From a virus, in the IMG/VR virus record IMGVR_UViG_3300048583_000035, positions 1 to 41,278 of that record: a stretch of 41,278 bases of DNA, one strand, 5' to 3'. The position numbers were made by a program, and so were the translations under genes. The notes under the pieces are model-generated. The model saw nothing but the letters and a program-made list of their open reading frames with translations. It made no database searches and was not told where the DNA came from. Shown one piece after another: positions 5,152-32,080 of the stretch. How positions within the stretch are numbered: the first letter of the stretch is position 1; the number at the start of each line of letters is the position of its first letter.

Positions 5152-5153
5152 GG

Positions 5154-5468: not shown

Positions 5469-5483
5469 TCGCTTCTCCAGTCC

Positions 5484-5514: not shown

Positions 5515-5521
5515 GCAGGCT

Positions 5522-19718: not shown

Positions 19719-19758
19719 GCCTCCAATGCGCTGAACGGTTCGGCGCCTGGAGACGCAA

Positions 19759-20052
19759 ATGCGCACAGTCAAGATCACGGGCCACGTCTACGAGGTCCGC
19801 TATTCGTGGGACAGGGAAAGCACGTTCATCACGATGTCGCACAGCGGCTTCGATGACGAAAACTACACCTACGTCGGCCCGGTCGAGGTCCACTACGCGA
19901 TCCCCGACAGCTACAACCCCACGGCCGTCAAGCTGGCCGCGCTGCAGGCCAAGCGCGAAGAAGCGGCGCGCGAGTTCGCGGCAACCGTCCGCGCCATCGA
20001 TGAGCAGATCAGCAAGCTCCAGGCGCTGACGTGCGACGGGGTGGCGGCATGA
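19759..20052 (+). CDS. hypothetical early-left protein
   Basis: 97 aa with SD GGAGA 7 nt upstream. The composition is protein-like, whereas the antisense ORF 19669..20061 is Arg-rich. Confidence 0.6.
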   Translation: MRTVKITGHVYEVRYSWDRESTFITMSHSGFDDENYTYVGPVEVHYAIPDSYNPTAVKLAALQAKREEAAREFAATVRAIDEQISKLQALTCDGVAA

Positions 20053-20357
20053 AGAACTCAAAATTTAGCCTGCTGGCTTCGATCATGGCCGTTGCTGGCA
20101 TTGCCGCTGCACAGGCCACCGCTCCCGTGTGGACGCCGACGCCGGGTCGCTCCAAAGGCAAAATCAAGTCAAACCGCTATCGCGGCAAAGCCGGCACATA
20201 CGGGCGCGGCTTGGTAAACCACTTCAACCGCAAGCGGCAGCAGCAACAACAAAAGTTGCCGCATCTGCGCGACGATCACGGCGCGTACACGATGGTCGGA
20301 AAGGGCTTGACGCGCCGCACATGGCTTGCCGGCATCAGCGCGCAGCGGGGGTATTGA
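20049..20357 (+). CDS. small secreted basic protein
   Basis: 102 aa from ATG 20049 (ATGA overlap). Signal-peptide-like MKNSKFSLLASIMAVAGIAAAQA. Confidence 0.55.
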   Translation: MKNSKFSLLASIMAVAGIAAAQATAPVWTPTPGRSKGKIKSNRYRGKAGTYGRGLVNHFNRKRQQQQQKLPHLRDDHGAYTMVGKGLTRRTWLAGISAQRGY

Positions 20358-20358
20358 C

Positions 20359-20799
20359 ATGCGCCCGGCAGTTACCGCCGCCGAGAAGGCCGCGATCCTC
20401 AGCCACTACACCGCGCAAGCTGCGCTTGCCAGCGATGCCGCGCTGTACGGCCCGGCGCTGGGCCATCCGCTCGATCCGCGCACGCCCGACGACGACCGGA
20501 TGAGCGAAGACGAGGCGAAAGAAGCCGCGACGGATGAACTGGTGCGCTGCCCTTACGACGTCACGTTCTGGCTAGACCAGCATGTCGGCATCGACACTGA
20601 CTCCATGCCGGCATGCACCGAGACCATTTGGCAGGTGACGCACTGCAGCGACGTGCGCCGGCTTTTGACGCTGGTCATGGACGGCAACAACGCGCAGATC
20701 ATCAACGCGGCCAAGCGGCTGCGCGAGCTGTACGTCGAAGCGCACAAGTTCGAGATTGCCGAGCGCGCGGCGGAACTGCTGAAGGAGCAGCGGGCATGA
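20359..20799 (+). CDS. hypothetical protein
   Basis: 146 aa. ATG 20359 lies 1 nt after the upstream stop. Confidence 0.55.
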   Translation: MRPAVTAAEKAAILSHYTAQAALASDAALYGPALGHPLDPRTPDDDRMSEDEAKEAATDELVRCPYDVTFWLDQHVGIDTDSMPACTETIWQVTHCSDVRRLLTLVMDGNNAQIINAAKRLRELYVEAHKFEIAERAAELLKEQRA

Positions 20800-20993
20800 G
20801 CAACAAGCCGAACATGAGCTATTGCAAGTTCCGCAACACGCTTGACGCTCTTCGTCAGTGCCGCGAATCGCTGTACGAAGGCGAGTGGCCCAAAGACGAA
20901 GAACTTGCCGCAGCCAAGCAGTTGATCCGAATGTGCGGCGAACTGTCGGCCGACTGGTCTGCGGACTTTGACCCATTGAAAGGTGAGCAATGA
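20796..20993 (+). CDS. hypothetical protein
   Basis: 65 aa, with ATGA overlaps at both ends. Confidence 0.5.
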   Translation: MSNKPNMSYCKFRNTLDALRQCRESLYEGEWPKDEELAAAKQLIRMCGELSADWSADFDPLKGEQ

Positions 20994-21160
20994 AGCACAG
21001 CAACATCCAAACACCGCGCCTCATGCGCGACGGGCAATGGAGCCTCGGCAGCGTGTCGGCCAGCGAGCGCGCACCGTGGCGCCTCGGGGACGTTGCGTGG
21101 GCCGTGGCGTGTGTCGCGGCTTGCGTGGCTGTCGGCGCGATTCTGGCGTGGGGGGTGTGA
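20990..21160 (+). CDS. small membrane protein
   Basis: 56 aa (below the ORF-track cutoff): MKHSNIQTPRLMRDGQW..VAWAVACVAACVAVGAILAWGV. Overlaps the neighbouring genes' stop/start codons at both ends (ATGA upstream, TGATG downstream). Confidence 0.5.
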   Translation: MKHSNIQTPRLMRDGQWSLGSVSASERAPWRLGDVAWAVACVAACVAVGAILAWGV

Positions 21161-21399
21161 TGCGCGAAATCACCACCGAAGAAGGCGACGCGCTGATCCG
21201 CGCAAGCTGGCCGCCGCGCCGCGCTGCCGTGCAGGACATCAACTACGAAGCGCACACGTCCGAGTGCGGCAACTGCGGCGCCGAGGAAGACGAGCCGAAG
21301 CCGCGTCACTGGCTGCGCATCGCCGCGCTGGTCGTCTCCTGCGCTCTGCTGGGCTGGGCGCTGGTCGCTGGCATGCGCATGGCGGGGATGCTGCCATGA
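21160..21399 (+). CDS. small membrane protein
   Basis: 79 aa with a C-terminal TM segment ..WLRIAALVVSCALLGWALVAG.. and a CxxC motif. Confidence 0.5.
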   Translation: MREITTEEGDALIRASWPPRRAAVQDINYEAHTSECGNCGAEEDEPKPRHWLRIAALVVSCALLGWALVAGMRMAGMLP

Positions 21400-21599
21400 A
21401 CGCGCGAGACAAGTCCTACCACTGGTGGACAGACGGATGGCCGCTGCCCGAGGAAATGCCCGCGTGGTGGGCTGACCGGCCGCTGACGGCTGAGCAGCTT
21501 GACGCGATGGCCGAGGAATACGCGCGGGAGCAGCGCGAAGGCGCCAGCGCCGACACCGGCCCGGTTGACGCAGCCGGCACGTACACCGGCAACAACTGA
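21396..21599 (+). CDS. hypothetical protein
   Basis: 67 aa, with an ATGA overlap. Confidence 0.5.
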   Translation: MNARDKSYHWWTDGWPLPEEMPAWWADRPLTAEQLDAMAEEYAREQREGASADTGPVDAAGTYTGNN

Positions 21600-21653
21600 T
21601 TTTGATAGGTTCGCCGCCACCTGTGAGAGCGGCACAACTAGGAAAGCGACATC

Positions 21654-22295
21654 ATGGGATTCATTGCAAAAGACTCTGGCGGCGGCAACTTCCGCCGCGT
21701 TCCGGCAGGCGCCTACATCGGGCGCTGCTACAGCCTGATCGACCTTGGCACACAGACCAGCACCGGCCAGTTCGGCGAGAAGTCGCAGCACAAGCTGCGC
21801 ATCGGCTGGGAACTGTTCGGCGAGGACGAGAACGGCGCACCGCTGACCGTTGAAGTCGATGGGCGCGAGATGCCCATGACGATTAGCAAGAGCTACACCG
21901 TGAGCCTGCACGAAAAGGCGGGCTTGCGGAAGGACTTGCAAGCGTGGCGTGGGCGCGAGTTCACCGACGAAGAAGCGAAGGCGTTCGACGTGTCGAAGCT
22001 GCTCGGCGCCTACTGCATGGTCAACGTCACCACCAGCGAGACAAACGGCAAGACGTACAGCAACGTCGCCGGGCTTACGCCGCTGCCGGGCGCGCTGAAG
22101 AACGCAAAGCCGGCTCCGGTGCATGACATCGTGGCGTTCGACTTGGACTCTCCCGACATGGAGGTGTTCGCGTCGTTCCACGAGAAGCTTCAAGAAGCCA
22201 TCAAGCGTTCGCCGGAGTGGAAGCGCGTAGGAAGGCAGGCGGAGCCGCCAGCAGGCGGCGACAGTGGATTTCCTGACGACGACATCCCGTTCTGA
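21654..22295 (+). CDS. DUF669-type phage single-stranded DNA-binding protein
   Basis: 213 aa. N-terminus ..FRRVPAGAYIGRCYSLIDLG.. and the acidic SSB-type C-terminal tip ..FPDDDIPF. Confidence 0.65.
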   Translation: MGFIAKDSGGGNFRRVPAGAYIGRCYSLIDLGTQTSTGQFGEKSQHKLRIGWELFGEDENGAPLTVEVDGREMPMTISKSYTVSLHEKAGLRKDLQAWRGREFTDEEAKAFDVSKLLGAYCMVNVTTSETNGKTYSNVAGLTPLPGALKNAKPAPVHDIVAFDLDSPDMEVFASFHEKLQEAIKRSPEWKRVGRQAEPPAGGDSGFPDDDIPF

Positions 22296-22297
22296 GC

Positions 22298-22708
22298 ATG
22301 ACCGCTGTAGCAGCATCAAGCGTTCGCATCCGCAGCATGGCAGATGGCACGCTTCGCGCCGAAATTGATTTCGAGCCGCGCGACGCTGCTGCAGCGTTTG
22401 CCATGCTTGGACAGCCCGGCCAGCCCATCGCTGTGGCGCCGCTCAAGACGGCAGCGCAACAACAGGCGCAGGAGGCGGCGCCAAAGGCCGCAGGCGGGCC
22501 GCTGGCGAAGCTGGCGGGGCAGTGGTGCCAGATGCCGCAGTTCCTCGCGTGGAGCGGCTGCAACACGGCTGACGCCGCCGCAGAGTTCATCCGGCGCGAG
22601 TGCGGCATCAGCAGCCGCGCCGAGCTTGACCACAACGCGGCAGCGGCTGCAGCGTTCCACACGCACATCCGCGAGCCGTTTTCAACGTACATGAAGGGCA
22701 CAGGATGA
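22298..22708 (+). CDS. hypothetical early protein
   Basis: 136 aa containing ..WCQMPQFLAWSGC..AAEFIRRECGISSRAELD... Confidence 0.5.
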   Translation: MTAVAASSVRIRSMADGTLRAEIDFEPRDAAAAFAMLGQPGQPIAVAPLKTAAQQQAQEAAPKAAGGPLAKLAGQWCQMPQFLAWSGCNTADAAAEFIRRECGISSRAELDHNAAAAAAFHTHIREPFSTYMKGTG

Positions 22709-23202
22709 CATCGCTTCTACTCATCGCTCAGGAATACCGGGCAGCAGCGGCGCAGCTTGCCGACCTCGACCTCCCGGCAGAAGTCGTCTCCGACACGCTG
22801 GAGAGCCTGGCCGGCGACATTGAAACCAAAGCGCAGAGCGTGGCGCACATGGTCCGCAGCTTGGAAGCGCAAGCCGCCGCCGTGAAGCAGTGGGCGAAGG
22901 ACGCCAGCGAGCGCGCGAAGGCCATCGAAGCACGCGCCGAACGGCTGCGCGAGTACCTGAGCAGCAACATGCAGGCATGCGGCATTCAGCGCATCGAAGG
23001 ACCGGGCATCACGCTGAGCTTTCGCAAGACGAGCGCCGTCGTGATCGATGACGAAGCGCAGATTCCGGCAGCGTACATGCGGCAGAAGCCGCCGCCGCCT
23101 GCGGAGCCGGACAAGCTGGCGCTGGCCGCTGCGCTGAAGACCGGCGAGACGATCCCGGGCGCGCGGCTGGAAACGCGGCAGGCGCTGCAGGTGCGGGCTT
23201 GA
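22705..23202 (+). CDS. Siphovirus Gp157-like protein
   Basis: 165 aa. Coiled-coil N-terminal half and a characteristic C-terminus ..EPDKLALAAALKTGETIPGARLETRQALQVRA. Confidence 0.6.
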   Translation: MTSLLLIAQEYRAAAAQLADLDLPAEVVSDTLESLAGDIETKAQSVAHMVRSLEAQAAAVKQWAKDASERAKAIEARAERLREYLSSNMQACGIQRIEGPGITLSFRKTSAVVIDDEAQIPAAYMRQKPPPPAEPDKLALAAALKTGETIPGARLETRQALQVRA

Positions 23203-23300
23203 ACGCAACAGCTAACCTGGACCCGACAGCATGAGCAACGATTCACGAAGCGAGACCCCGGCGCATGCTGTCGGGGCTCAGGTTCAGCGAGGGGTTAGGC
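23198..23300 (-). repeat. attC-like site S1 (array-distal boundary; left box degenerate)
   Basis: Plus strand: CTTGAAC-GCAACA-GCT-AACCTG-GACCCGACAGCATG(30-nt loop)CATGCTGTCGGGGC-T-CAGGTT-C-AGC-GAGGG-GTTAGGC. The left box overlaps the TGA of the Gp157-like gene. Confidence 0.65.
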
Positions 23301-23302
23301 GC

Positions 23303-23578
23303 GTGGTGTGCGCAGCCCTGCGAGCTACAGACGGCCGGCTACTGCTGGGAATACGGCACTACAGCCAAGACATGCACGACCAACTGGCGCAACGTGCTGA
23401 CCGCGACCGCTTCCTGCTGCGGCTAGACCCGAACCAGGGCTTCGTTGACCAGCACGGCGTGTACATGACGCGGGAGGAAGCCTACCGAGTTGCCGAAGCG
23501 GCTGGGCAGATTGCCTACCCGGAGCGTTGCGGACGTGGCCTTGAAGGGCCGAAGCTTTACAGCGAAGGACTGTACTGA
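23303..23578 (+). CDS. hypothetical protein (cassette 1)
   Basis: 91 aa from GTG 23303, 8 nt after the GAGGGG of S1. The alternative ATG 23231 lies inside the S1 stem. Sequence ..VVCAALRATDGRLLLGIRHYS..GFVDQHGVYMTREEAYRVAEAAGQI..LYSEGLY. Confidence 0.55.
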   Translation: MVCAALRATDGRLLLGIRHYSQDMHDQLAQRADRDRFLLRLDPNQGFVDQHGVYMTREEAYRVAEAAGQIAYPERCGRGLEGPKLYSEGLY

Positions 23579-23585
23579 TGCAAGC

Positions 23586-23670
23586 GCCTAACGTAAAGCT
23601 AACCGGCGCCTGCACGGCGCCGTGAGTAGCACCCTTGCCGGAGGGCGTCCGGTTCAGCGAAATGTTAGGC
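23586..23670 (-). repeat. attC-like site S2
   Basis: Plus strand: GCCTAAC-GTAAA-GCT-AACCGG-CGCC..(branched loop)..GGCG-T-CCGGTT-C-AGC-GAAAT-GTTAGGC. Confidence 0.75.
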
Positions 23671-23688
23671 GCGTGGTGCCGGAGCGAG

Positions 23689-24012
23689 ATGATGACTGAA
23701 GACCAAGTACGCGAGATGGTGAAGGAGTGTGGCCTTGACTGGCAGCGCGGGTACATGCCGATGTTTGATGGCGATCCAACGAACCGCTATGCGGCGCTGG
23801 TCAACGCCGCGCGAACGAACGCCCTGCAAGACGCCGCCCGCTGGGTGGACGAAGAAGTGGGCCACGCCGTGCAAGATGGCTGGAGCGTTGAAGCGGTGCA
23901 GGCCCTGATGGCGACGCGGGACATGCTCCGGGCGCACGCCGACATGAATGCGACGACCGTTGAGGTAATCCCAAGCGCCGATACGCCAACTTGGCGCGAC
24001 GGTGTGCGTTGA
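23689..24012 (+). CDS. hypothetical protein (cassette 2)
   Basis: 107 aa, with GGAG 5 nt upstream of ATG 23689. MMTEDQVREMVKECGLDWQRGY... Confidence 0.6.
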   Translation: MMTEDQVREMVKECGLDWQRGYMPMFDGDPTNRYAALVNAARTNALQDAARWVDEEVGHAVQDGWSVEAVQALMATRDMLRAHADMNATTVEVIPSADTPTWRDGVR

Positions 24013-24014
24013 GG

Positions 24015-24072
24015 GCCTAACGTTGCAATTAAGCGGCTGCCGTAGGCGGTCCGCTTGAATTGCTTGTTAGGG
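24015..24072 (-). repeat. attC-like site S3 (58 bp)
   Basis: Plus strand: GCCTAAC-GTTGC-AATT-AAGCGG-CTGCC(GTA)GGCGG-T-CCGCTT-G-AATT-GCTT-GTTAGGG. The bulges are T24050 and G24057. Confidence 0.85.
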
Positions 24073-24097
24073 CGCTGGTGGAGAAACGGGACGAACT

Positions 24098-24760
24098 ATG
24101 CACGCCACATGCCGCTGGTGCGGACACGCTGAACGAGAGCACGACCGGCAGTATGGGTGCGGCGAGTGCGATTGCGAACACTTTGAAAGGGAAAGAACGA
24201 TGAGCATGGACCATGTGCAACTAGCCCGCGCGCTGTGGGTGTGGTTTGGCTACCGCATTGACGAGAGCAGCGAGCCAGGCGCAGACCCGCGCGTTGACGC
24301 GCTCGCCGAGAAACTGGAAGAGTGGATTCCGGCCTTGCCCTACGAGCCGCTACACAGTGACCAGATTGAGCGCATTGCGCTTGAGTTGGGATGGGACCTT
24401 GACCAAGGGCGCGTAGGCGGCGACCTTGACACTTTTGCGCGCTACGTCGAGCAGGCGCACGGCATTTGCATTACCAACATGGCCGGAGGTGGCAAGGCCG
24501 ACCGCTACGTGAGCCACAACAAGAAAGTGGGGAACATTGGGCCTGCCAACCTGCCGCGCCTAGAAGTGGACGCGGCACACTGCCGGCGCATGGCATGCGG
24601 CGTGCAGGAATGGATGGCGCAGGGCTCAAACCCGGACGAGATGCCGAAGCCGCAGATTGCCGCGCTGGCGTTGCTGGTGAAGGAGCTTTGCACCGAAGTC
24701 CGACGCCTAGGCGAAGACAACACAACGCCGATGCAGCCGCATGCGCACGGGTTGATGTGA
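24098..24760 (+). CDS. hypothetical protein with N-terminal CxxC..CxxC motif (cassette 3)
   Basis: 220 aa starting MHATCRWCGHAEREHDRQYGCGECDCEHF... An in-frame alternative start is ATG 24200, preceded by AAGGGA. Confidence 0.55.
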   Translation: MHATCRWCGHAEREHDRQYGCGECDCEHFERERTMSMDHVQLARALWVWFGYRIDESSEPGADPRVDALAEKLEEWIPALPYEPLHSDQIERIALELGWDLDQGRVGGDLDTFARYVEQAHGICITNMAGGGKADRYVSHNKKVGNIGPANLPRLEVDAAHCRRMACGVQEWMAQGSNPDEMPKPQIAALALLVKELCTEVRRLGEDNTTPMQPHAHGLM

Positions 24761-24767
24761 GCGAGCG

Positions 24768-24866
24768 CCCTAACGGTCGAAGTGGGCCGGAGACCCGGCC
24801 AAAAGGAACGTGATGACTGAGCAAACGACGGAAGCCGGGGCTCTCGGCTCGACTGAGGGGTTAGGC
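24768..24866 (-). repeat. attC-like site S4 (long loop carries SD and ATG of cassette 4 ORF)
   Basis: Plus strand: CCCTAAC-GGTCGA-AGT-GGGCCG-GAG-A-CCCGGC(34-nt loop)GCCGGG-G-CTC-T-CGGCTC-G-ACT-GAGGG-GTTAGGC. The loop contains AAGGAA and ATG 24813. Confidence 0.75.
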
Positions 24867-25133
24867 CTGGAGCCGGAGCGCGCAGCGTTTGAGCGCTGGT
24901 ACGCCACGACTGACGCGCGCTGGTGGAACACAAGCGATGCGGCATTTGCGGCGTGGCGCGCGGCCGTGGCGGCAGAGCGCGAGCGGTGCGCCGTCGCCGC
25001 TTGGAGCCACTACATGGACATTTGCAAGAAGCGCGGGCTACCTGCCGCAATGTTTGATGATTGGTGCGCAGCAGGGGCCATACGCGGGCCTAACGTGGGA
25101 GTTAAGCCGCAGACACCGGCCGCGCCGACGTAA
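24813..25133 (+). CDS. hypothetical protein (cassette 4)
   Basis: 106 aa. The start lies in the S4 loop, and no in-frame start exists for 100 nt after the S4 right box. The ORF reads through the S5 left box (CCT AAC) and stops in the S5 loop. Confidence 0.6.
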   Translation: MTEQTTEAGALGSTEGLGLEPERAAFERWYATTDARWWNTSDAAFAAWRAAVAAERERCAVAAWSHYMDICKKRGLPAAMFDDWCAAGAIRGPNVGVKPQTPAAPT

Positions 25134-25188
25134 CCACACACACAAATGCTGGCAGCCGGTGGCTGTCGGCTTGAACGACTAGTTAGGG
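25088..25188 (-). repeat. attC-like site S5
   Basis: Plus strand: GCCTAAC-GTGGGA-GTT-AAGCCG-CAGAC..(loop)..GGCTG-T-CGGCTT-G-AAC-GACTA-GTTAGGG. The minus strand contains GTTCAAGCCGAC and CGGCTTAACTC. Confidence 0.85.
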
Positions 25189-25214
25189 CTCAGCGCCCGC
25201 CACAGGAGTGAACC

Positions 25215-25502
25215 ATGTACGTGATTGCAACCGAAAGCCGCCGCAAAGACGAAGTGCTGTTTATGGTGGACCGGAACCGCCAGCGCGCCAGCTTTTGGAG
25301 CAACCGCCTTAACGACGCCATGAAGTACGGCGACAAGTCTGCGGCCCAGCAGAAAGCTACAAAGCTGCGATTCAACCGGCCGCGCGTGCTGACGCTTCAA
25401 GACGCTGCGCGCATTGCTGGCGAGCAGGCACGCGAGCATGAGCATGAGCAAGCGATGGCCGACGATGAGGCCGGATGGGATGGGCACAAGGGGCATTTCT
25501 GA
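25215..25502 (+). CDS. hypothetical protein (cassette 5)
   Basis: 95 aa with a GGAG SD. MYVIATESRRKDEVLFMVDRNRQRASFW... Confidence 0.6.
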   Translation: MYVIATESRRKDEVLFMVDRNRQRASFWSNRLNDAMKYGDKSAAQQKATKLRFNRPRVLTLQDAARIAGEQAREHEHEQAMADDEAGWDGHKGHF

Positions 25503-25503
25503 G

Positions 25504-25561
25504 CCCTAACGCCCGAGTTCACGCGGCGCCGTAGGCGCTCGCGTGGAACGAAGTGTTAGGC
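25504..25561 (-). repeat. attC-like site S6 (58 bp)
   Basis: Plus strand: CCCTAAC-GCCCGA-GTTC-ACGCG-GCGCC(GTA)GGCGC-T-CGCGT-G-GAAC-GAAGT-GTTAGGC. Confidence 0.85.
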
Positions 25562-25591
25562 ATCACTTTTACCGAAGCGAAGGGAGCGACG

Positions 25592-25906
25592 ATGGACATT
25601 GACACTGCAGACCATGTGCTGCACGGCCCGAGCGGCGAAACCTGGGTGGTGGCCTACGTTGAAGGCGACCGGCTGGCTTGGTGCGGGTGGCCCGAAGGCG
25701 AGGCAAAGCTGGCCGATTGCACGCTGCTGAAGAAGGCCACTACCGAGCAGCGTGACAAGCTGCTGCTGGAGATGGCCGATTGCACGAACGACCGTCGCGG
25801 AAGGTATGCGCGGCAGCGCCTTGATTTGAACGACTGCCCGCGAACAAGCCGGTTAAACATGGACAGGGACCGGATGTGGGCAGAGCACGGCATCCCTGGC
25901 GCGTGA
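25592..25906 (+). CDS. hypothetical protein (cassette 6)
   Basis: 104 aa from ATG 25592, preceded by AGGGAG. MDIDTADHVLHGPSGETWVVAYVEGDRLAWCGWPEGE... Confidence 0.6.
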   Translation: MDIDTADHVLHGPSGETWVVAYVEGDRLAWCGWPEGEAKLADCTLLKKATTEQRDKLLLEMADCTNDRRGRYARQRLDLNDCPRTSRLNMDRDRMWAEHGIPGA

Positions 25907-25907
25907 T

Positions 25908-25965
25908 GCCTAACGGCCAAGCTCACCTGCCGCCGCAGGCGGTCAGGTGCAGCGAGGGGTTAGGC
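25908..25965 (-). repeat. attC-like site S7 (58 bp)
   Basis: Plus strand: GCCTAAC-GGCCAA-GCT-CACCTG-CCGCC(GCA)GGCGG-T-CAGGTG-C-AGC-GAGGG-GTTAGGC. Confidence 0.85.
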
Positions 25966-25984
25966 CCCAACTTGGAGAACTGAA

Positions 25985-26317
25985 ATGACGGTGATGAGCA
26001 ACGAAGACACGGCGCTGCCGGAGACGACCGAAGACGAGGCTTGGTACGACGCCGAGATTGCCCCGGCGCTGGCCGCGCTTGCGAAGCGGTGCCACGAGCG
26101 CGGGATGTCGTTTATTGCAGCGGTGGAGTACCAGCCCGGCGACCGGGCGGGCACCTACTACCTGACGCAAGACGCCGGAACTGCTATGCGCATGCTGCAC
26201 CTGTGCGCGCAGACCGTGCCAAACGTGGACGGCTACATCATGAGCCTACGCAAGTGGGCCGATGCCAACGGTGTGGACACCGGCGGCAGCTTTGTGATGC
26301 GGCGCCTTGGGGCCTAA
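25985..26317 (+). CDS. hypothetical protein (cassette 7)
   Basis: 110 aa with a GGAG SD. The stop codon is the TAA inside the S8 left box (GCC TAA C). Confidence 0.6.
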   Translation: MTVMSNEDTALPETTEDEAWYDAEIAPALAALAKRCHERGMSFIAAVEYQPGDRAGTYYLTQDAGTAMRMLHLCAQTVPNVDGYIMSLRKWADANGVDTGGSFVMRRLGA

Positions 26318-26380
26318 CGTTGCCGGTAACCGGCCCGTTGCGGCTTGCCGCAATGGGTCCGGTTGACTGGCGTGTTAGGC
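26312..26380 (-). repeat. attC-like site S8
   Basis: Plus strand: GCCTAAC-GTTGCC-GGT-AACCGG-CCCGTTGCGG(CTTG)CCGCAATGGG-T-CCGGTT-G-ACT-GGCGT-GTTAGGC. Confidence 0.85.
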
Positions 26381-26406
26381 AGCACTGTTGAACAACGAGG
26401 AAACGT

Positions 26407-26760
26407 ATGAGCAACCACACACCAGGGCCTTGGCATACAGCGACTGCTGACGAATGGCGCACTGCCAGCGGCGAGCATGCGCAGTGGGGCCGCTTTGACA
26501 TCAGCGCCGGCAGCAACGACCAGGCCGCAGAGAACTACTACCGCGTGGCCAGCGTGAGCAACGTGAACAACTCGGACCAGAACCTGGCCAATGCGAAGCT
26601 GATTGGGGCCGCGCCTGACCTACTGATGGCGCTGCGGGAGATTGCCGCCGACTACGCCGACCGATTTGACATGGACAGCCCGAGCACAAACCCCGGCATG
26701 AAGTACGTGGTGCAGCAGGCACGCGAGGCTATCGCGAAGGCGACGGGTTGTGCTGCCTAA
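26407..26760 (+). CDS. conserved hypothetical phage protein (cassette 8)
   Basis: 117 aa with a GAGGA SD. ..HTPGPWH..NLANAKLIGAAPDLLMALREI... The stop is the TAA inside the S9 left box. Confidence 0.6.
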   Translation: MSNHTPGPWHTATADEWRTASGEHAQWGRFDISAGSNDQAAENYYRVASVSNVNNSDQNLANAKLIGAAPDLLMALREIAADYADRFDMDSPSTNPGMKYVVQQAREAIAKATGCAA

Positions 26761-26812
26761 CGTTCGTATTGAGCCGCAGCCGTAGGCTGTCGGCTCGAAT
26801 ACGGGGTTAGGG
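26755..26812 (-). repeat. attC-like site S9 (58 bp)
   Basis: Plus strand: GCCTAAC-GTTCGT-ATT-GAGCCG-CAGCC(GTA)GGCTG-T-CGGCTC-G-AAT-ACGGG-GTTAGGG. Confidence 0.85.
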
Positions 26813-26858
26813 CGCTGATGCCGGAGCGCGATCATGTTTGCGTGTTACAAAATAGTTG

Positions 26859-26886
26859 TTGACGCTGGCGGTTGCTGTGCTACAGT
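26859..26886 (+). promoter_or_regulatory. sigma70-like promoter inside cassette 9
   Basis: TTGACG-16 nt-TACAGT. The transcript would begin at the 22-nt leader that is shared with the promoter at 30494. Confidence 0.55.
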
Positions 26887-26891
26887 AACCA

Positions 26892-26913
26892 CATCGCAAC
26901 ACGCAACCCGGAG
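26892..26913 (+). repeat. 22-nt leader repeat, copy 1 (CATCGCAACACGCAACCCGGAG)
   Basis: Identical to 30528..30549. It ends in the GGAG Shine-Dalgarno sequence and contains the internal direct repeat CGCAAC-A-CGCAAC. Confidence 0.9.
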
Positions 26914-26919
26914 AGACAA

Positions 26920-27063
26920 ATGCAAACCACCTACTGGAACGGAGACCTGGCCCGCTACACCGGCAAGACCATGACATTGCACGGCGGGTTGTTCTACGAA
27001 ATCGAACTGCTTGAAGGCCACCTGAAGGGCCAAACCAAAGTCACGCAACGCGCCCCCAAGTAA
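26920..27063 (+). CDS. small hypothetical protein (cassette 9, gene 1)
   Basis: 47 aa: MQTTYWNGDLARYTGKTMTLHGGLFYEIELLEGHLKGQTKVTQRAPK. The ATG is 6 nt after the leader GGAG. Confidence 0.5.
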   Translation: MQTTYWNGDLARYTGKTMTLHGGLFYEIELLEGHLKGQTKVTQRAPK

Positions 27064-27075
27064 AGGAGACTTGAC

Positions 27076-27294
27076 ATGCACACCTTCCAAGTTGTTACCC
27101 GCGAAGTCCAACATGCCGGTCGTCAAATCACTGCTGACGTTGTGCGCAACGATGGGCGTGTCGTTCGCTCTGGCATGTGGCCCGACTATGCCGAGGCCGA
27201 CTGCGCACTGCTGAACGAGTATTGCGCTGGAGGCTGGACTGCTGCGCAGTACCACGCCGAGCGTGCTGTGCGTATGGCGTCTCTGCGCAAATGA
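27076..27294 (+). CDS. hypothetical protein (cassette 9, gene 2)
   Basis: 72 aa with an AAGGAG SD. Confidence 0.55.
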   Translation: MHTFQVVTREVQHAGRQITADVVRNDGRVVRSGMWPDYAEADCALLNEYCAGGWTAAQYHAERAVRMASLRK

Positions 27295-27476
27295 GCGCCG
27301 ACAAGAACAAAGGGGGGCGACCCCCGGCCCCGCCCGGCCTGCGCCGGGTAAACGTCCCGCTTCGCCTGCCCGAGTGGCTGGTGCAGTGGATGGCAGAGCA
27401 GGCCGAGACGCCTGCGGAGTTGATCGAAGCCGCACTGCTGAAGGCGCACAAGCTGCGCCCGCCGCGTGCGCCCTAA
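27291..27476 (+). CDS. ribbon-helix-helix-like small DNA-binding protein (cassette 9, gene 3)
   Basis: 61 aa with an ATGA overlap. ..KGGRPPAPPGLRRVNVPLRLPEWLVQWMAEQA..AELIEAALLKA... The stop is the TAA in the S10 left box. Confidence 0.5.
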   Translation: MSADKNKGGRPPAPPGLRRVNVPLRLPEWLVQWMAEQAETPAELIEAALLKAHKLRPPRAP

Positions 27477-27528
27477 CGTTCGAGCTAACTTGCCGCCGTA
27501 GGCGGTCAAGTTGAGCGAGGGGTTGTGC
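27471..27528 (-). repeat. attC-like site S10 (58 bp; variant right box GTTGTGC)
   Basis: Plus strand: CCCTAAC-GTTCGA-GCT-AACTTG-CCGCC(GTA)GGCGG-T-CAAGTT-G-AGC-GAGGG-GTTGTGC. Confidence 0.85.
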
Positions 27529-27563
27529 TTCACCCATCCGAAGCGCGCAACTGTAGGAACTAC

Positions 27564-27785
27564 ATGATTCTTGAAATGATGCCAACGCTGCTGATGCGCG
27601 CGTTCCATGTGCCAGAGGTGGTTGTGGACTGCGGGAAGCCCGACGACTTTGAAGGCACCGCCTGCGCCGCGTTTCTGATGTGGCGCATGGAGTACCCGGA
27701 CTACAGCGCGAAGCTGCGTATTCCTGAGCAGCCAGAGGCCGAGAAGGCGCTGAACCGGGCACTCTTCCGTAGGCGTGCCGCGTGA
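27564..27785 (+). CDS. hypothetical protein (cassette 10)
   Basis: 73 aa from ATG 27564, preceded by AGGAA. MILEMMPTLLMRAFHVPEVVVDCGKPDDFEG... Confidence 0.55.
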   Translation: MILEMMPTLLMRAFHVPEVVVDCGKPDDFEGTACAAFLMWRMEYPDYSAKLRIPEQPEAEKALNRALFRRRAA

Positions 27786-27786
27786 A

Positions 27787-27879
27787 GCACAACGCAGAAG
27801 TAACCGGCTTCGGCCGAGCGGAGGATCGATGACCAACGAACGTACGCCGGCCGAAGTCCGGTTGACTGCCGGGTTAGGC
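27787..27879 (-). repeat. attC-like site S11 (variant left box GCACAAC; loop carries SD and ATG)
   Basis: Plus strand: GCACAAC-GCAGA-AGT-AACCGG-CTTCGGCCG(31-nt loop)CGGCCGAAG-T-CCGGTT-G-ACT-GCCGG-GTTAGGC. The loop contains GGAGGA and ATG 27829. Confidence 0.8.
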
Positions 27880-28128
27880 CCGCTGCCCGAGCCAGCCGCA
27901 GAAGCGGTGATGGACTTATGCGCCGACCACCAAGGGCCAGTAGAGGCATGGCAGTACCTGCCGGCCGACGCGATGCTCTACACCGCGAACCAGATGCGCA
28001 GCTATGCCGCCGCAGAGATGGTGCGTGCAGTTTCCGCAGAGCGTGCGCGCTGGACAGAAGCGGTGATGGCCGAGCTTGACGGCAACGGCCAGGCGCACGC
28101 CATCGTGGACTATGCGACAAGGGCCTAA
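27829..28128 (+). CDS. hypothetical protein (cassette 11)
   Basis: 99 aa from the loop ATG (an alternative ATG 27910 lies after the site). The stop is the TAA in the S12 left box. Confidence 0.55.
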   Translation: MTNERTPAEVRLTAGLGPLPEPAAEAVMDLCADHQGPVEAWQYLPADAMLYTANQMRSYAAAEMVRAVSAERARWTEAVMAELDGNGQAHAIVDYATRA

Positions 28129-28218
28129 CGACGAAGCTGAACGGGAGCCCACGCATGACCAAGCCTGAAAACGCACCCGCCGCTGCCGTGGGCTCTCCGT
28201 TCGAGCGCCCTGTTGGGC
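28123..28218 (-). repeat. attC-like site S12 (variant right box GTTGGGC; loop carries ATG)
   Basis: Plus strand: GCCTAAC-GACGAA-GCT-GAACGG-GAGCCC(39-nt loop with ATG 28155)GGGCTC-T-CCGTTC-G-AGC-GCCCT-GTTGGGC. Confidence 0.8.
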
Positions 28219-28544
28219 GGCCGGTGCCGGAGCGCGTGACCTTGGCGTGCCTGCTGGTGCAGCAAAACTTCAAGCCCGGCGACCAGGCGCCACAAGGCTA
28301 CTTGGCGTGGCACGAGTGGGCCGAGGTGCAGCACAAGGCCGGGTTGCGGCAGAAGCAGTGCGGCCGGTGCGGGCTGTGGCGCTACCCGCAGCAGTTGAGC
28401 GCAGAGGTTGACCGCGCCGAGCTTGTGATGACGAAGAAGCGCAAGTCGCGGCGCGTGACGGTGGAGACGCCGGTCTGCAACGACTGCCACAAGCCGCCCA
28501 ACGTGGGAGCTAAGTTGGAGACAACGGCGCCCGCACAGAACTGA
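28155..28544 (+). CDS. zinc-ribbon protein (cassette 12)
   Basis: 129 aa containing ..CGRCGLWRYP..(28)..CNDC... It starts in the S12 loop and stops in the S13 loop after reading through the left box GCCCAAC. Confidence 0.6.
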   Translation: MTKPENAPAAAVGSPFERPVGRPVPERVTLACLLVQQNFKPGDQAPQGYLAWHEWAEVQHKAGLRQKQCGRCGLWRYPQQLSAEVDRAELVMTKKRKSRRVTVETPVCNDCHKPPNVGAKLETTAPAQN

Positions 28545-28603
28545 CCGGAGCATGACGGCGCAGATGGGCGCCGTTGGCTCTCAACTTGAGCGACAGGTTA
28601 GGC
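28496..28603 (-). repeat. attC-like site S13 (variant left box GCCCAAC)
   Basis: Plus strand: GCCCAAC-GTGGGA-GCT-AAGTTG-GAGACAACGGCGCCC(33-nt loop)GGGCGCCGTTGGCTC-T-CAACTT-G-AGC-GACAG-GTTAGGC. Confidence 0.8.
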
Positions 28604-28630
28604 CACGCTGTGGCCGAAGCGAGGTAAAGC

Positions 28631-28852
28631 ATGAGAAGCACACGATCTAACCTGATGGCGATTGCAGCAATCGCGGCGATGGGCGCGGGGCTGGCGCAGG
28701 CGGCAATGCCGGCGCCGCGCAAGGGCAGTAACCGTGACTACAAGCCCACGCCACCGCGCTGCGACACAGCGCTGGCGCGCGAAATTGCCGAGCACAACGA
28801 AGCCGTCGAGCGCCGCAAGGCTGAAAAGAAGGCGCGGAAGCTGGCGCGCTGA
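28631..28852 (+). CDS. small secreted basic protein (cassette 13)
   Basis: 73 aa with a GAGG SD. Signal-peptide-like MRSTRSNLMAIAAIAAMGAGLAQA. Confidence 0.6.
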   Translation: MRSTRSNLMAIAAIAAMGAGLAQAAMPAPRKGSNRDYKPTPPRCDTALAREIAEHNEAVERRKAEKKARKLAR

Positions 28853-28860
28853 ATTGCGTG

Positions 28861-28911
28861 GCCTAACGTGTTTTAGGCCACACCATCGGAAACTCTGCAC
28901 AAGTTTTAGGC
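28861..28911 (-). other. attI-like simple site plus a direct-repeat copy (int-proximal end of the array)
   Basis: The minus strand reads GGCCTAAAACACG|TTAGGCC (plus 28861-28879). This compares with the recalled class-1 attI1 core GCCCTAAAACAAAG|TTAGGC. GTTTTAGGC recurs 33 bp away (28870-28878 and 28903-28911). No L stem or bulges are present here. Confidence 0.6.
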
Positions 28912-28913
28912 AC

Positions 28914-29198
28914 ATGCGAAGCTACTACGCCCCATCGACGCGCCACAACGGCAGCGAACGCAGCGACATCCTGAGCCGCGAGCGCGAGCCGTACACGCGA
29001 CCGCTACCGTACATCGGTCGGCTGTTGATCGCGCTGCCGGGCTACAGCATTGATTGGACGCTGCGGCAGGACATGCGCGACATGCGGCGCTTCTATGCGC
29101 TCGGCGCAGATGGCGAGCGGCTGGCCCATGCCGCGCCGAAGGAGTTGCTGCGCAGCGTTGCGCTGCTGGTGCCGCGCTACAGCGTGGCGGAGGATTGA
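28914..29198 (+). CDS. hypothetical protein between the attI-like site and xis
   Basis: 94 aa: MRSYYAPSTRHNGSERSDILSREREPYTRPLPYIG... The ATG abuts the second GTTTTAGGC repeat. Confidence 0.5.
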   Translation: MRSYYAPSTRHNGSERSDILSREREPYTRPLPYIGRLLIALPGYSIDWTLRQDMRDMRRFYALGADGERLAHAAPKELLRSVALLVPRYSVAED

Positions 29199-29201
29199 GC
29201 G

Positions 29202-29408
29202 TTGAAGCAAGACGAAGAAAAGTACATCCCGCTACTTGAGTGGGGCGCTAGGCGTTACGGCTCGCTTGCGTCTGAGTACACGCTGCGCCAGTGGGCGAAG
29301 AGTGGCGAGATATATCCGCCGCCGCAGAAGGTCGGCAATCGATGGGCTGTGCTGCCGACTGCGCAGCGGATAGTAGATGGCAGGCTTCCGCTGGTGTCGC
29401 GGCTGTGA
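29202..29408 (+). CDS. xis: excisionase, lambda Xis-like
   Basis: TTG 29202 lies 7 nt after GGAGGA. ..YIPLLEWGARRYGSLASEYTLRQWAKSGEIYPPPQKVG.. parallels recalled lambda Xis MYLTLQEWNARQRRPRSLETVRRWVRECRIFPPPVKDG. Confidence 0.7.
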   Translation: MKQDEEKYIPLLEWGARRYGSLASEYTLRQWAKSGEIYPPPQKVGNRWAVLPTAQRIVDGRLPLVSRL

Positions 29409-30466
29409 ACGCAGCCCGTCGCCAGCGCAGCCGCAGCACCTGGCCGCGCGGAATGATGGAACCGCGCCCCGGGTACTACGCCTGGCGCCATCCAGACGGC
29501 CGAACGTTTGCAATCGGCCGCGTGCCGCTGTCGCACGCAATCGCCGAGGCCGCCGCTGCGAATGCGCACCTCGAAAGCCTGAAGCCGGGCCTAGTCGAGC
29601 GGCTGACCGGCGCAGACCGCACCGTGGCCGACCTGCTCGGCAAGATGGACCCGGCCCGCACGCCGAACACTGCAAAGAGCATGCGCAGCCTGGACAAGAT
29701 CATCACCGCCGCAATCGGCACCGTGCCATGCGGGCAGTTGACCGTGCGCCAGTGCGCCGACTTGATCGAAAGCATCCGCGAAGCTGGCAAGGAGCGCAGC
29801 GCGCAGGCCGTGCGCTCGCGCCTAGTGTCGGCGTGCAAGCTGGGCGGCGAACTCGGCTGGATGGAGAGCAACCCGGCCGCCATGACGCGCGCCCGCAAGG
29901 TGACAACGAAGCGCGGCCGGCTGACGCTGGAAACGTTCCGCGCGATCTACGCGAAGGCTGGCGAGGTCGCAGAGTGGCTACCGCACGCAATGATGCTGGC
30001 GCTGGTGACCGGCGCAGACCGCGTGACGATCACGCGCATGACGCGGGACATGGTGGCCGATGGGCACCTGACGTACCGGCGCAGCAAGACGGGCGCCGCT
30101 GTGGCCGTGCCGCTGCGGCTGCGGCTGGATGCTGTGGGCGTGACGCTGGATGAGCTTGTGCGGCCGAAGACGGGCGTCGTGAGCCGGTATCTGGTGCACC
30201 ACGTCAACCCGCACGGCAACGCGCCTGCGGGGAGCGCGGTGTTTCCGGATCGCGTGTCGAAGGCGTTCACGGCTGCGCGCAAGTTGGCTGGGTTGCCGGA
30301 CGAGGGCGCGGGGACTTTTCACGAGCTGCGGTCGCTGTCGAAACGCTTGTATGACCAGCAGGGCGGAGTAGACACCAGAGCCCTCCTCGGTCACAAGACG
30401 CAGAAGATGGCCGACATGTATGCCGACCCGCGAGGCATAGAGGCGATCCGGGTGCGGGTGGCATGA
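29405..30466 (+). CDS. int: tyrosine integrase, lambda Int family (arm-binding N-terminus)
   Basis: 353 aa from GTG 29405 (GTGA overlap with xis). ..RPGYYAWRHPDGRTFAIG.. and ..TFHELRSLSKRLY..ALLGHKTQKMADMYADPRG.. align with recalled lambda Int (..NGYYCYRDPRTGKEFGLG.. and ..TFHELRSLSARLY..HLLGHKSDTMASQYRDDRG). Confidence 0.85.
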   Translation: MNAARRQRSRSTWPRGMMEPRPGYYAWRHPDGRTFAIGRVPLSHAIAEAAAANAHLESLKPGLVERLTGADRTVADLLGKMDPARTPNTAKSMRSLDKIITAAIGTVPCGQLTVRQCADLIESIREAGKERSAQAVRSRLVSACKLGGELGWMESNPAAMTRARKVTTKRGRLTLETFRAIYAKAGEVAEWLPHAMMLALVTGADRVTITRMTRDMVADGHLTYRRSKTGAAVAVPLRLRLDAVGVTLDELVRPKTGVVSRYLVHHVNPHGNAPAGSAVFPDRVSKAFTAARKLAGLPDEGAGTFHELRSLSKRLYDQQGGVDTRALLGHKTQKMADMYADPRGIEAIRVRVA

Positions 30467-30493
30467 GCGCAGATGTAACAGTGCAAATAGTGC

Positions 30494-30522
30494 TTGCGTG
30501 AGTGCTCACGATGCCCTAGAGT
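30494..30522 (+). promoter_or_regulatory. sigma70-like promoter downstream of int
   Basis: TTGCGT-17 nt-TAGAGT, followed by the same 22-nt leader as the promoter at 26859. Confidence 0.55.
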
Positions 30523-30527
30523 ACATG

Positions 30528-30549
30528 CATCGCAACACGCAACCCGGAG
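30528..30549 (+). repeat. 22-nt leader repeat, copy 2
   Basis: CATCGCAACACGCAACCCGGAG, identical to 26892..26913. Confidence 0.9.
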
Positions 30550-30557
30550 CAAACAAC

Positions 30558-30764
30558 ATGAACGGCCAACAACTCACCACCGCCCAGCAACTGCAAGTGC
30601 GCCGCGCTGCGGCACGTCATCTGCGCGGCATTCCGGCCCGCCAGAACGCCGCCAGCATTGACCTGCTGGAAACGCAACTGCTGCTCGAAGAAATTGAGTC
30701 CCGCTCGACGCCGGAAGAGCGCGCCCGCTGGGAGCGCGAAGAGCACTCCCTTGGCTTGATTTGA
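30558..30764 (+). CDS. hypothetical protein (post-int operon, gene 1)
   Basis: 68 aa from ATG 30558, 8 nt after the leader GGAG. Confidence 0.55.
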   Translation: MNGQQLTTAQQLQVRRAAARHLRGIPARQNAASIDLLETQLLLEEIESRSTPEERARWEREEHSLGLI

Positions 30765-30775
30765 AAGGAAGCGCT

Positions 30776-31069
30776 ATGACCACCAACGAAACCGAGCGCG
30801 ATGGCGCGTATGACCGGGCCTGCCGCGACCCGCGCGACAACTGCCCGGCAGAGGGCGCCGTGCTGAAGCGCGAATGGCGCCAAAAGACCGCGACGATTGC
30901 TATGCTGACCGCGATGATTGACCAGCAGGGCAAGGCCAACCGCGAGCACCACGACGCGCTGCTGGCGCTGTACGTGGCGCTGCGCGACAGCGCGCCCAAG
31001 CTCTCACCGGCTGCTGCGGAAGCCTTCGGCAAGGCGCGTGAGGTGCTGGCGCGTTACGGGGCCAAATGA
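30776..31069 (+). CDS. hypothetical protein (post-int operon, gene 2)
   Basis: 97 aa from ATG 30776, preceded by AAAGGAAG. Confidence 0.55.
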   Translation: MTTNETERDGAYDRACRDPRDNCPAEGAVLKREWRQKTATIAMLTAMIDQQGKANREHHDALLALYVALRDSAPKLSPAAAEAFGKAREVLARYGAK

Positions 31070-31350
31070 CCAAGACCAAAACCCTGCTGTTTTGCCCGTA
31101 CACAAGCAGGCCGCGCCATCCAAACGATATTGCAAGTGACCCCGAGGGACTGCTAATCGTTGAAGACATTGCGGCGCCGACCTTGGCTGCAGCTAAGACC
31201 CCCGCCCAGCGCCAGGCCGAACGCAAGGCCCGCGAGCTTGCCGCAGGCCGTGTGCAGTGGAAGTGCTGGGTGCACCCCGACGACGTGGCATTGATGCGAG
31301 AGCACGCGGCCAAGCTGGCGCGTCGCAGGGAACGACAAGGAGTGAAGTGA
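31066..31350 (+). CDS. hypothetical protein (post-int operon, gene 3)
   Basis: 94 aa, with an ATGA overlap. Confidence 0.5.
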   Translation: MTKTKTLLFCPYTSRPRHPNDIASDPEGLLIVEDIAAPTLAAAKTPAQRQAERKARELAAGRVQWKCWVHPDDVALMREHAAKLARRRERQGVK

Positions 31351-31604
31351 TGTGGCAACCGATTGAGACGGCGCCGCGAGACGGCACACAGGTGTTGCTT
31401 TACGCGCCCGGCAGGTTGACCTATGGAGCGTGGTCAGAGCCATCTACTACGCCGCGCATCAAGTACCAAGATGGATTCGCTCCTGAGCCCGAATGGGACG
31501 AGTTTGAGCCGTACTGGGCAAGCTGGGATGGCGGGTTTACCGAAAAGGCGCCGCCGACCCACTGGATGCCGCTACCGCCGCCCCCAAGCGGCAACACGGC
31601 GTGA
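31350..31604 (+). CDS. DUF551-like protein
   Basis: 84 aa from ATG 31350 (TGATG overlap). MWQPIETAPRDGTQVLL.. and a C-terminal ..PTHWMPLPPPP. Confidence 0.6.
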   Translation: MWQPIETAPRDGTQVLLYAPGRLTYGAWSEPSTTPRIKYQDGFAPEPEWDEFEPYWASWDGGFTEKAPPTHWMPLPPPPSGNTA

Positions 31605-32080
31605 CCAAAATCGATACGCTGGCCGCGCTGTCATAGGTGCGCCGGAGACTGGCAGATAATGCCCATGCAAACGAAGAGCACCCTAACCCTAGGGATTGCG
31701 GCCATATAAATCAACAACTTGCGCACGTTTTCTCGACGGCGCCTGAGTACGAAGAATCAATAGGTTAGCGCACATGCGATACGCTGCGAATCAACGTCAA
31801 ACACGTTGCAGCCATAGGACAAGCCCGATGGGTGATGTGCCCCACTTTGCCCGGCTTGTGGCTGTTGCAGCCGCCCAGCATGCCCCGGAGGGTGAGCTTC
31901 GATTTCCACGGCGCCCGTTTCGTGGGCCAGACGATCATCACCTTGTTGCCGTGTTCCTGCGGTCCCGCTCAAAGGCCGCGCGCCGGGCTTGTCAGTACAG
32001 CGCATCCGCTTTGCTCGTCGGCCGCCACGGACATGGGCGCGCTGCTTTGCCACTTCGCGGACGGTACGCGGAAACGAGAA

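Follow-up and report, generated by a model that had tools for sequence, protein, structure and literature searches.

Integron-type gene cassettes in bacteriophage genomes have been described by Qi et al. 2023 (PMC9892861), who reported three complete integrons, one In0 and 17 clusters of attC sites lacking an integrase (CALINs) in 10,705 phage genomes. In that study, a CALIN was defined by at least two predicted attC sites (the example TJE1 has three), the integron integrase IntI1 was found to recombine phage attC sites with the bottom strand preferred over the top strand, and methyltransferase cassettes were noted in the phage arrays. The locus analyzed here originates from the IMG/VR virus record IMGVR_UViG_3300048583_000035 (positions 1 to 41,278), and this whole stretch of 41,278 nucleotides is referred to as the window. 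It carries an array of 13 attC sites, next to which a xis–int gene pair occupies the place that an intI gene takes in an integron. The explanation that fits best, and that is considered likely, is an ordinary lambda-type integration module lying beside a phage CALIN, the array being recombined in trans.

Like the CALINs of Qi et al., the window represents a phage genome harboring attC cassettes without an adjacent intI gene, and methyltransferase cassettes are present in arrays related to that of the window. Its attC sites are also of a type recognized by IntI1. In contrast to these published examples, the window array is larger (13 sites, compared to 2–4 in the published cases), lies within the early operon of a temperate lambdoid phage, features uniformly inverted cassette open reading frames (ORFs) as well as a conserved attI-like junction followed by the gene orfX, and belongs to a family spanning approximately 60 IMG/VR contigs, in which sister phages carry IntI at the operon end. 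The earlier note, made from the nucleotide sequence alone, had offered two readings, namely a CALIN carried on a phage and served in trans by a host IntI, or the recruitment of a lambda-family integrase to folded attC-type substrates, and had regarded either as new. The first of these is the best supported. However, CALINs in phages have already been published (PMC9892861), so that the kind itself is known, and the claim of novelty is narrowed accordingly. New are the array size, the inverted cassette ORFs and the conserved attI-like junction. A literature search retrieved no paper describing the phage attC-array family of the window, and blastn of the consensus 58-nt attC against INPHARED yielded no match.

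The same note had described the recombinase as lambda-Int-like with an arm-binding N-terminus, and its partner as a lambda-Xis-like protein coupled to it by a GTGA overlap; both descriptions were borne out by profile and structure database searches. Residues 5–350 of Int align with residues 4–353 of the 356 residues of lambda Int (PDB 5j0n, 1z1b, 1z1g; E 3.5e-38), which is the sole PDB family matched, and HK022 Int shows 33% identity across 99% of the length. Pfam domains detected on Int are Phage_integrase, Phage_int_M and Arm-DNA-bind_1, the last with 17.8 bits, which does not reach its cut-off of 22. Int possesses the catalytic motifs, with TGADR, SKTG, FHELRS, LLGH and MY aligning with lambda R212, K235, H308/R311, H333 and Y342, respectively; the first catalytic Arg is shifted by one column in this alignment. 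In the JGI gene call (P0001), int begins at a later ATG and encodes 337 aa; the GTG start is favored here because the N-terminus deduced from it aligns with lambda Int. The xis product, in addition to its Pfam Exc match, matches the Xis structures 1lx8 and 1pm6 from lambda and HK022 (E 4e-5), and the xis TGA codon (29406–29408) overlaps the int GTG start codon (29405–29407).

Both genes are the last of the plus-strand early operon, whose distal half is occupied by the attC array. The module resembles that of lambda and HK022 in its full-length Int including arm-binding N-terminus and catalytic residues, in overlapping xis and int genes that close the early-left operon, and, as far as the proposed attP is concerned, in a core flanked by arm-type repeats. 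It differs from them in the approximately 33% sequence identity, in a small-gene block of approximately 1.1 kb with a promoter-like site that splits the proposed attP from int, and in a host target other than the known attB sites of lambda or HK022. Taken on its own, the xis–int gene pair is quite probably an ordinary lambda-type integration module. Screening of IMG/VR by means of a peptide-pattern scan found no Int relatives.

Membership in the integron integrases was evaluated by means of the NCBIfam profile TIGR02249 (integron integrase, integrase_gron), which has a cut-off of 265 bits. Int gave no match at E<=1, whereas the controls, IntI1 of plasmid R100 and the recombinase of locus L042, reached 508.6 and 428.2 bits, respectively (L-numbers denote related viral and metagenome loci compared with the window). 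Moreover, blastp of Int against IntI1 yielded only E 0.037, confined to the box II region, and Phage_int_SAM_4, which is present in the L042 IntI, is not among the Pfam domains of Int. Int is colinear with lambda Int and shows no long insertion matching the IntI-specific extra segment. A tblastn search with IntI1 across the 41-kb window genome (E<=10) revealed no IntI homologue. The impression gained by eye that Int lacks the IntI hallmarks was thus corroborated, and no IntI signature, which would have turned the locus into an ordinary integron, was found with this profile at the threshold given.

A genome devoid of IntI is also what would be expected if Int, together with Xis and perhaps the orfX product, recombined the attC hairpins or the palindromic array junction and thereby replaced IntI. 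This alternative is regarded as very improbable. Int carries neither an IntI signature nor, in comparison with lambda Int, an added IntI-like segment, and a separate attachment site with arm sites, which has homologues in relatives and at a lysogen junction, can be proposed for it.

Comparison of the DNA downstream of int with related loci suggests that Int has its own lambda-style attP composed of a core and arm sites. The candidate region is located approximately 1.1 kb downstream of int, displaced by four small plus-strand ORFs, and comprises a core around TGCCCATGCAAAC (about 31659–31672), arm-type sites TCGATACGC (31611–31619) and GCGATACGC (31776–31784), and the elements CATAGGTGCGC and ATATAAATCAACAACTTGCG, which lie on either side of TGCCCATGCAAAC in this order. 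In L003 and L005, the 200 nt past int contain CGATACG repeats on both sides of the block CTGCC(C/G)(A/C)TGCA.ACCA, and the core TGCC(C/G)(A/C)TGCA.AC is common to the window, L003/L005 and a junction in L001, which is a contig of a Burkholderiales metagenome-assembled genome (MAG). In the latter, the block is positioned 50 nt past int, phage similarity ends there, and a minus-strand ORF resembling the C-terminus of uvrB (by eye) follows within approximately 130 nt, as would be expected of a prophage–host junction; TGCCCATGCAGACCATCAAGACC is the L001 sequence at the candidate host attB. Across the whole window, the arm motif TCGATACGC occurs 19 times compared to 10.6 expected occurrences, which is not significant, and support for it derives from position and homology. 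The proposed attP core bears no resemblance to GCCTAAC, the box that delimits the attC sites, which further argues against an activity of Int on the array. Given that Int is of the ordinary lambda type and has a putative attachment site of its own, the array most likely depends on an IntI from elsewhere. The xis–int module would integrate and excise the phage through the proposed double-stranded attP without acting on the attC hairpins.

The array itself consists of 13 attC-like hairpins distributed over 5.4 kb (23210–28603), all of one polarity and spaced at 320–750 nt. Each hairpin is bounded by GCCTAAC-type and GTTAGGC-type boxes and, when folded as the plus strand, shows two bulged bases in its 3' arm. 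An attC finder based on regular expressions and folding proved too insensitive, and a covariance model (R1), built from the phage copies in the plus orientation of the window, and an nhmmer profile were used instead. In 47 aligned copies, 95.5% of the cells are paired and 146 cells are compensatory; covariation amounts to 0.369, compared to 0.096 for shuffled alignments and at most 0.046 for slid registers. Window copies score 65–73 bits on the plus strand and about 20 bits on the minus strand, E8 being lower with 46.9 bits on the plus strand. R1 also recovers the true aadA1 attC of the R100 class 1 integron (55.9 bits, E 4.5e-12) and, in the class 2 integron of R721, the attC sites of aadA1 (55.8 bits) and sat2 (45.0 bits). 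The matches in R100 and R721 are located on the strand opposite the cassette gene, the other strand reaching only 10–20 bits, and in R100 the aadA1 attC is matched on the strand encoding intI1. Because the model matches on the strand opposite aadA1, the plus strand of the window corresponds to the attC bottom strand.

Based on these results, the 13 phage elements are genuine attC sites of the aadA1 type. With the class 1 integron In2 of R100 they share the R boxes, the L boxes and the two bulged bases on the attC bottom strand. Thirteen attC sites within 5.4 kb and no IntI homologue constitute a CALIN in the sense of at least two clustered attC sites with no intI nearby, as judged from DNA folds, R1, nhmmer and tblastn. 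An Rfam scan of the window returned no family matches, attC having no Rfam entry. Furthermore, the stop codon of four cassette ORFs is the TAA inside the GCCTAAC box (26315–26317, 26758–26760, 27474–27476 and 28126–28128), and the variable loops of the long sites E4, E11 and E12 hold ORF starts (24813, 27829 and 28155). Coordinates of the sites and of the remaining features of the locus are summarized in Table 1.

Table 1. Features of the attC array, the xis–int module and adjoining parts of the early operon in the window, with the evidence on which each is based.
Feature	Coordinates	Strand	Basis and remarks
Upstream part of the plus-strand early operon	19690–23202	+	Promoter-like site at 19690–19718, then early genes, the last being Sipho_Gp157 (22705–23202)
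attC E1	23210–23300	+ (bottom strand on +)	DNA fold; partial nhmmer match on +
attC E2	23586–23670	+	DNA fold, R1, nhmmer
attC E3, 58 nt	24015–24072	+	R1 72.3 bits on + vs. 21.6 on -
attC E4	24768–24866	+	DNA fold, nhmmer; start codon of the next ORF (24813) within the loop
attC E5	25088–25178	+	DNA fold, R1, nhmmer
attC E6	25504–25561	+	R1 73 bits on +
attC E7	25908–25965	+	R1 73 bits on +
attC E8	26312–26380	+	R1 46.9 bits on +
attC E9	26755–26812	+	R1 72 bits on +
attC E10	27471–27528	+	R1 65.3 bits on +
attC E11	27798–27879	+	DNA fold, R1, nhmmer
attC E12	28123–28218	+	DNA fold, R1
attC E13	28496–28603	+	DNA fold, R1, nhmmer
attI-like junction	28861–28913	+	GCCTAA/C as last R box, then conserved orfX leader (GTGTTTTAGGCC...GGAAACTCTGC)
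orfX, conserved 94-aa gene	28914–29198	+	23 homologues; follows the array junction
xis, lambda-type excisionase, 68 aa	29202–29408	+	Pfam Exc PF07825, 31.8 bits (cut-off 23); lambda and HK022 Xis structures
int, lambda-type heterobivalent tyrosine integrase, 353 aa	29405–30466	+	Lambda Int structures; HK022 Int; Pfam
Insert between int and attP	30467–31604	+	Promoter-like site, then four small ORFs (moron-like)
Proposed attP of Int	31596–31800	+	Homology to post-int DNA of L005 and L003 and to the L001 prophage–host junction

In R100, intI1 lies on the bottom-strand side of the attC sites, with attI1 in between, and its transcription leads away from the array. Calibrated on this polarity, xis–int of the window stands in an identical relation to its array, and the canonical intI geometry claimed for int in the earlier note, on the attI-like side and directed away from the array, was confirmed. 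The int start is approximately 525 nt from the attI-like junction, and orfX and xis separate the two. Whereas aadA1 in the R100 control is encoded on the top strand and runs away from intI1, the cassette ORFs of the window run toward int, co-directionally with orfX, xis and int. Since a strand call by ORF length and GC3 is ambiguous in high-GC DNA, the criterion GC3>GC1 was applied, which was unreliable for the low-GC control L096; by this criterion, nine cassette spacers of the window were called as coding on the bottom strand and two remained without a call. For several cassette ORFs, translations and PHROG or tblastn matches agree with bottom-strand coding. A canonical array would have its ORFs on the top strand of the attC sites and expressed from Pc at the attI end, and the window array departs from this. 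The likeness to the class 1 integron extends to the placement and direction of the recombinase gene with respect to the polarity of the attC sites, while the differences are a recombinase that is not an IntI, cassette ORFs inverted toward the recombinase gene, and expression that would come from a far-end phage promoter instead of Pc.

Inverted integrons are known from Spirochaetes such as Treponema; there, a true intI gene precedes the array and is transcribed in the same direction as the cassette ORFs. The window is alike in this co-directionality and differs in that its recombinase gene is located downstream of the array and is of the lambda type.

Among the spacers of the phage arrays, 192 were called as coding on the bottom strand, compared to 20 on the other strand. 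In L048, L075 and L083, both divergent early operons carry attC sites, and in each operon the bottom strand is the local coding strand; a replication origin between the operons, if present, would put the bottom strands on the lagging-strand template. As the attC bottom strand is the coding strand in these phage arrays, any gene at the operon end takes the position and orientation of an intI gene. The canonical geometry, although it would suit an Int recruited to the array, is consequently not evidence of a coupling between Int and the array.

The same polarity bears on a further alternative, in which the array is a relic of old integron-derived DNA that has ceased to recombine and whose hairpins are retained for another purpose, e.g., punctuation of the early transcript (processing, stability or attenuation), the adjacency of Int being coincidental. 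The bottom-strand hairpin lies on the sense strand and is therefore present in the mRNA, attC polarity goes with the direction of transcription in each of two divergent operons, several sites contain start or stop codons, and the genome lacks IntI. Such a relic is nevertheless considered unlikely. The features conserved in the hairpins are those read by IntI, namely both R boxes, GCCTAAC and GTTAGGC, and two fixed bulged bases as in the aadA1 attC, terminator-like sites are not enriched, and true intI genes accompany the same attC class. Moreover, cassette-sized blocks of 85–97% identity with boundaries at R boxes are common to otherwise different phages.

The array end (28861–28880) reads GCCTAACGTGTTTTAGGCC, and the attI1 simple site of R100 in bottom-strand orientation reads GCCTAACTTTGTTTTAGGGC; the likeness to class 1 integrons thus includes an attI1-like simple site, CCTAAAAC-N-GTTAGGC. 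An exact 18-mer, GCCTAACGTGTTTTAGGC, was found in 56 metagenome contigs, 44 of which have attC profile matches, nearly all of them on the strand of the 18-mer, while most of the remaining contigs carry the conserved leader and orfX. In the window, L053, L147 and L155–L158, a left GCCTAAC box is followed by the leader (...GCATCC..GGAAACTCTGC...) and orfX, with variable cassettes to the left. Variable cassettes on the left and a constant leader with orfX on the right are what an insertion site of the attI type would be expected to show, orfX then marking the platform side. At the window junction, no sites resembling the IntI-binding sites DR1/DR2 were recognized. A second copy of TTTTAGGC (28905–28913) had been taken as an IntI-binding direct repeat and was discarded, being part of the conserved orfX leader by comparison. 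The 18-mer also occurs inside the long attC arrays of L106, L110, L119 and L149, and conserved units of approximately 200 nt follow it in L106, L112, L114, L126 and L132; judged from these occurrences, it may double as a minimal attC-like site or boundary.

Wherever it occurs, orfX comes after an attC array and the junction. The gene exists in two sequence flavors and is also present in L133, L147, L053, L150 and L155–L158, following the last R box. Its product has no sequence match in Pfam, PHROG or PDB, and a Foldseek search of its AF2 model (pLDDT 76.8) against PDB returned nothing below E 0.4.

In order to evaluate which genes follow such arrays elsewhere, related loci were compared. The attC pattern derived from the window elements matched 90 IMG/VR contigs, and R1 identified 394 sites in approximately 90 viral loci, 58 of which have at least three and 34 at least five sites, with a median spacing of approximately 470 nt. 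A true IntI follows the array in L042 (369 aa, the control described above) and in L068, and intI remnants were detected in L050 and L011/L071. Lambda-type Int with Xis was found after the array in the window, L073 (62% identity) and L147 (95%), another, unrelated tyrosine recombinase in L053 and L156, and no integrase in L014, L101, L155, L157 and L158, where terminase, DNA polymerase or convergent late genes follow. Conversely, Int relatives devoid of any attC were identified in L003/L004 (76% identity) and L001 (62%); in L003/L004, the complete left operon, with ERF and Gp157, is visible. L002 and L005 had also been listed as array-less Int relatives and were retracted: their contigs break exactly at orfX, and because the upstream DNA is cut there, they are uninformative on the array.

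The same junction and attC class thus precede an IntI, an unrelated recombinase or no integrase at all, depending on the phage. Together with the proposed attP, the Int relatives lacking an array and an attC polarity that tracks transcription, this variety of genes in the slot leaves the earlier suggestion that a lambda-family integrase had been recruited to attC-type substrates without support.

In L042 (698–1807, minus strand) and L068 (10827–11558, plus strand), IntI is the final gene of the early operon and co-directional with the cassette ORFs. It directly follows a different attI type, in which GCCTAAC is joined to GTCAATTCGAC, and L068 adds two CCTGTCCGCTAACC repeats. A further locus, L098, corresponds to KX853513.1 (Virus Rctr41k), a published 41-kb virus from a methane-oxidizing enrichment. 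After small co-directional ORFs, it encodes an IntI-like protein (4680–5678, annotated as xerD) that is 47% identical to the IntI of L042; a search of Rctr41k with R1 gave no attC of the window class.

Exchange of individual cassettes is apparent from relatives of window cassettes in other phages, with amino acid identities of 85% for cassette 3 (L050), 94% for cassette 6 (L090), 97% for cassette 8 (L036) and 62% for cassette 7 (L046). DNA blocks shared with other phages (24017–24775, 25505–25915 and 26371–26816) lose their similarity at R boxes, and the IntI-positive L068 has cassette 1 and two attC sites in common with the window. These comparisons indicate that the window cassettes are mobile and that mosaicism is cassette-sized.

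Several observations weigh against an ordinary integration module beside an array that is served in trans. The same Int clade recurs beside the junction (window, L147 with 95% and L073 with 62% identity, probably also L002 and L005), and the linkage is therefore not random, as would be anticipated if Int acted on the array. Two perfectly inverted 7-bp repeats, separated by a 6-bp spacer, make up the junction GGCCTAA-CGTGTT-TTAGGCC, which could serve any tyrosine recombinase as a double-stranded core. The proposed attP is based on homology and one MAG junction, and the action of IntI in trans is something that we infer from sequence comparison. Finally, the attC bodies on either side of cassette 8 differ from those around its counterpart in L036, with the breakpoints at the two R boxes. 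One IntI crossover point would not predict this pattern, which might result from occasional recombination of the top strand or from exchange driven by homology.

The cassette 8 pattern would also be compatible with single-strand-annealing recombination of the phage shuffling the cassettes, the attC sites acting as short homologous linkers. Recombination genes are indeed present in the operons, namely Sipho_Gp157 in the window, ERF in L003, RecT in L155 and a PDDEXK nuclease in L068. Yet the 7-bp R boxes at the breakpoints would offer very little length for annealing, exchange driven by homology would require neither strictly conserved extrahelical bases nor their strand asymmetry, and related arrays are accompanied by IntI, so that annealing is a distinctly unlikely main source of the shuffling.

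Under the favored interpretation of a phage CALIN recombined in trans, gain, loss and exchange of cassettes would most likely be catalyzed by a true IntI. The enzyme might be supplied by the host or by a related co-resident phage, L042 and L068 carrying intI in the same slot, and intI and xis–int would represent alternative modules swapped at the operon end.

Beyond this, an undescribed, phage-adapted form of integron, common in phages of Burkholderiales-like hosts, is put forward tentatively, at somewhat less than an even chance. It would combine inverted cassettes, an entry junction on the orfX side, IntI either carried or borrowed, and a counter-defense toolkit as cargo. If this form exists, a cassette orientation opposite to that in bacterial integrons would let the early promoter of the phage read through the array, and in either of the divergent early operons the coding strand would carry the attC bottom strand. 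Newly acquired cassettes would enter at the attI-like junction beside orfX, IntI would reside at the operon end in some phages and be borrowed by others, the window phage having swapped it for xis–int, and the cargo would be a shuffled accessory and anti-defense toolkit, comprising methyltransferases, Mom and Tad3 in related arrays.

An ordinary Int removes the most exotic reading of the locus and leaves as its setting a testable integron-type array inside a temperate phage. Integron cassette exchange thereby becomes testable as a route to phage mosaicism, and the question arises whether phages shuffle accessory and counter-defense genes with integron machinery, mirroring the defense cassettes of bacterial integrons. 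For annotation pipelines, the locus provides a warning that a tyrosine recombinase adjoining attC sites is not necessarily the recombinase of the array.

Regarding the cargo, three window cassettes match PHROGs of unknown function. Cassettes of L068 (3615–10754) encode DNA methyltransferases (three N6_N4_Mtase and one MT-A70), a C5 methylase adjoins the array in L042 (4377–5915), Mom is encoded in L031 just past the last detected attC, and Tad3 in L155 (5700–6161). The content of these related arrays suggests counter-defense as the function of their cargo. Within the window, cassette 9 (26812–27471) is the largest except for cassette 3 and contains three small ORFs preceded by a promoter-like site of its own, TTGACG-16-TACAGT with an upstream TG (26859–26886).

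The window is a temperate lambdoid phage genome with a GC content of approximately 64%, its late genes being encoded on the minus strand and a long early operon on the plus strand (approximately 19.7–31.6 kb); the host is probably a member of the Burkholderiales. An exact 127-bp terminal direct repeat (bases 1–127 are identical to 41152–41278) indicates that the assembly, with a length of 41,151 bp, is either circular or circularly permuted. Searching the INPHARED phages with window positions 22900–30600 (blastn) gave no DNA match. A complete tRNA-Ser(GCT) gene is located at 18207–18282 on the plus strand, near the late/early boundary, and no link of this gene to integration was found. The promoter-like sequence of the block between int and attP, TTGCGT...TAGAGT, occurs in L002 as well.

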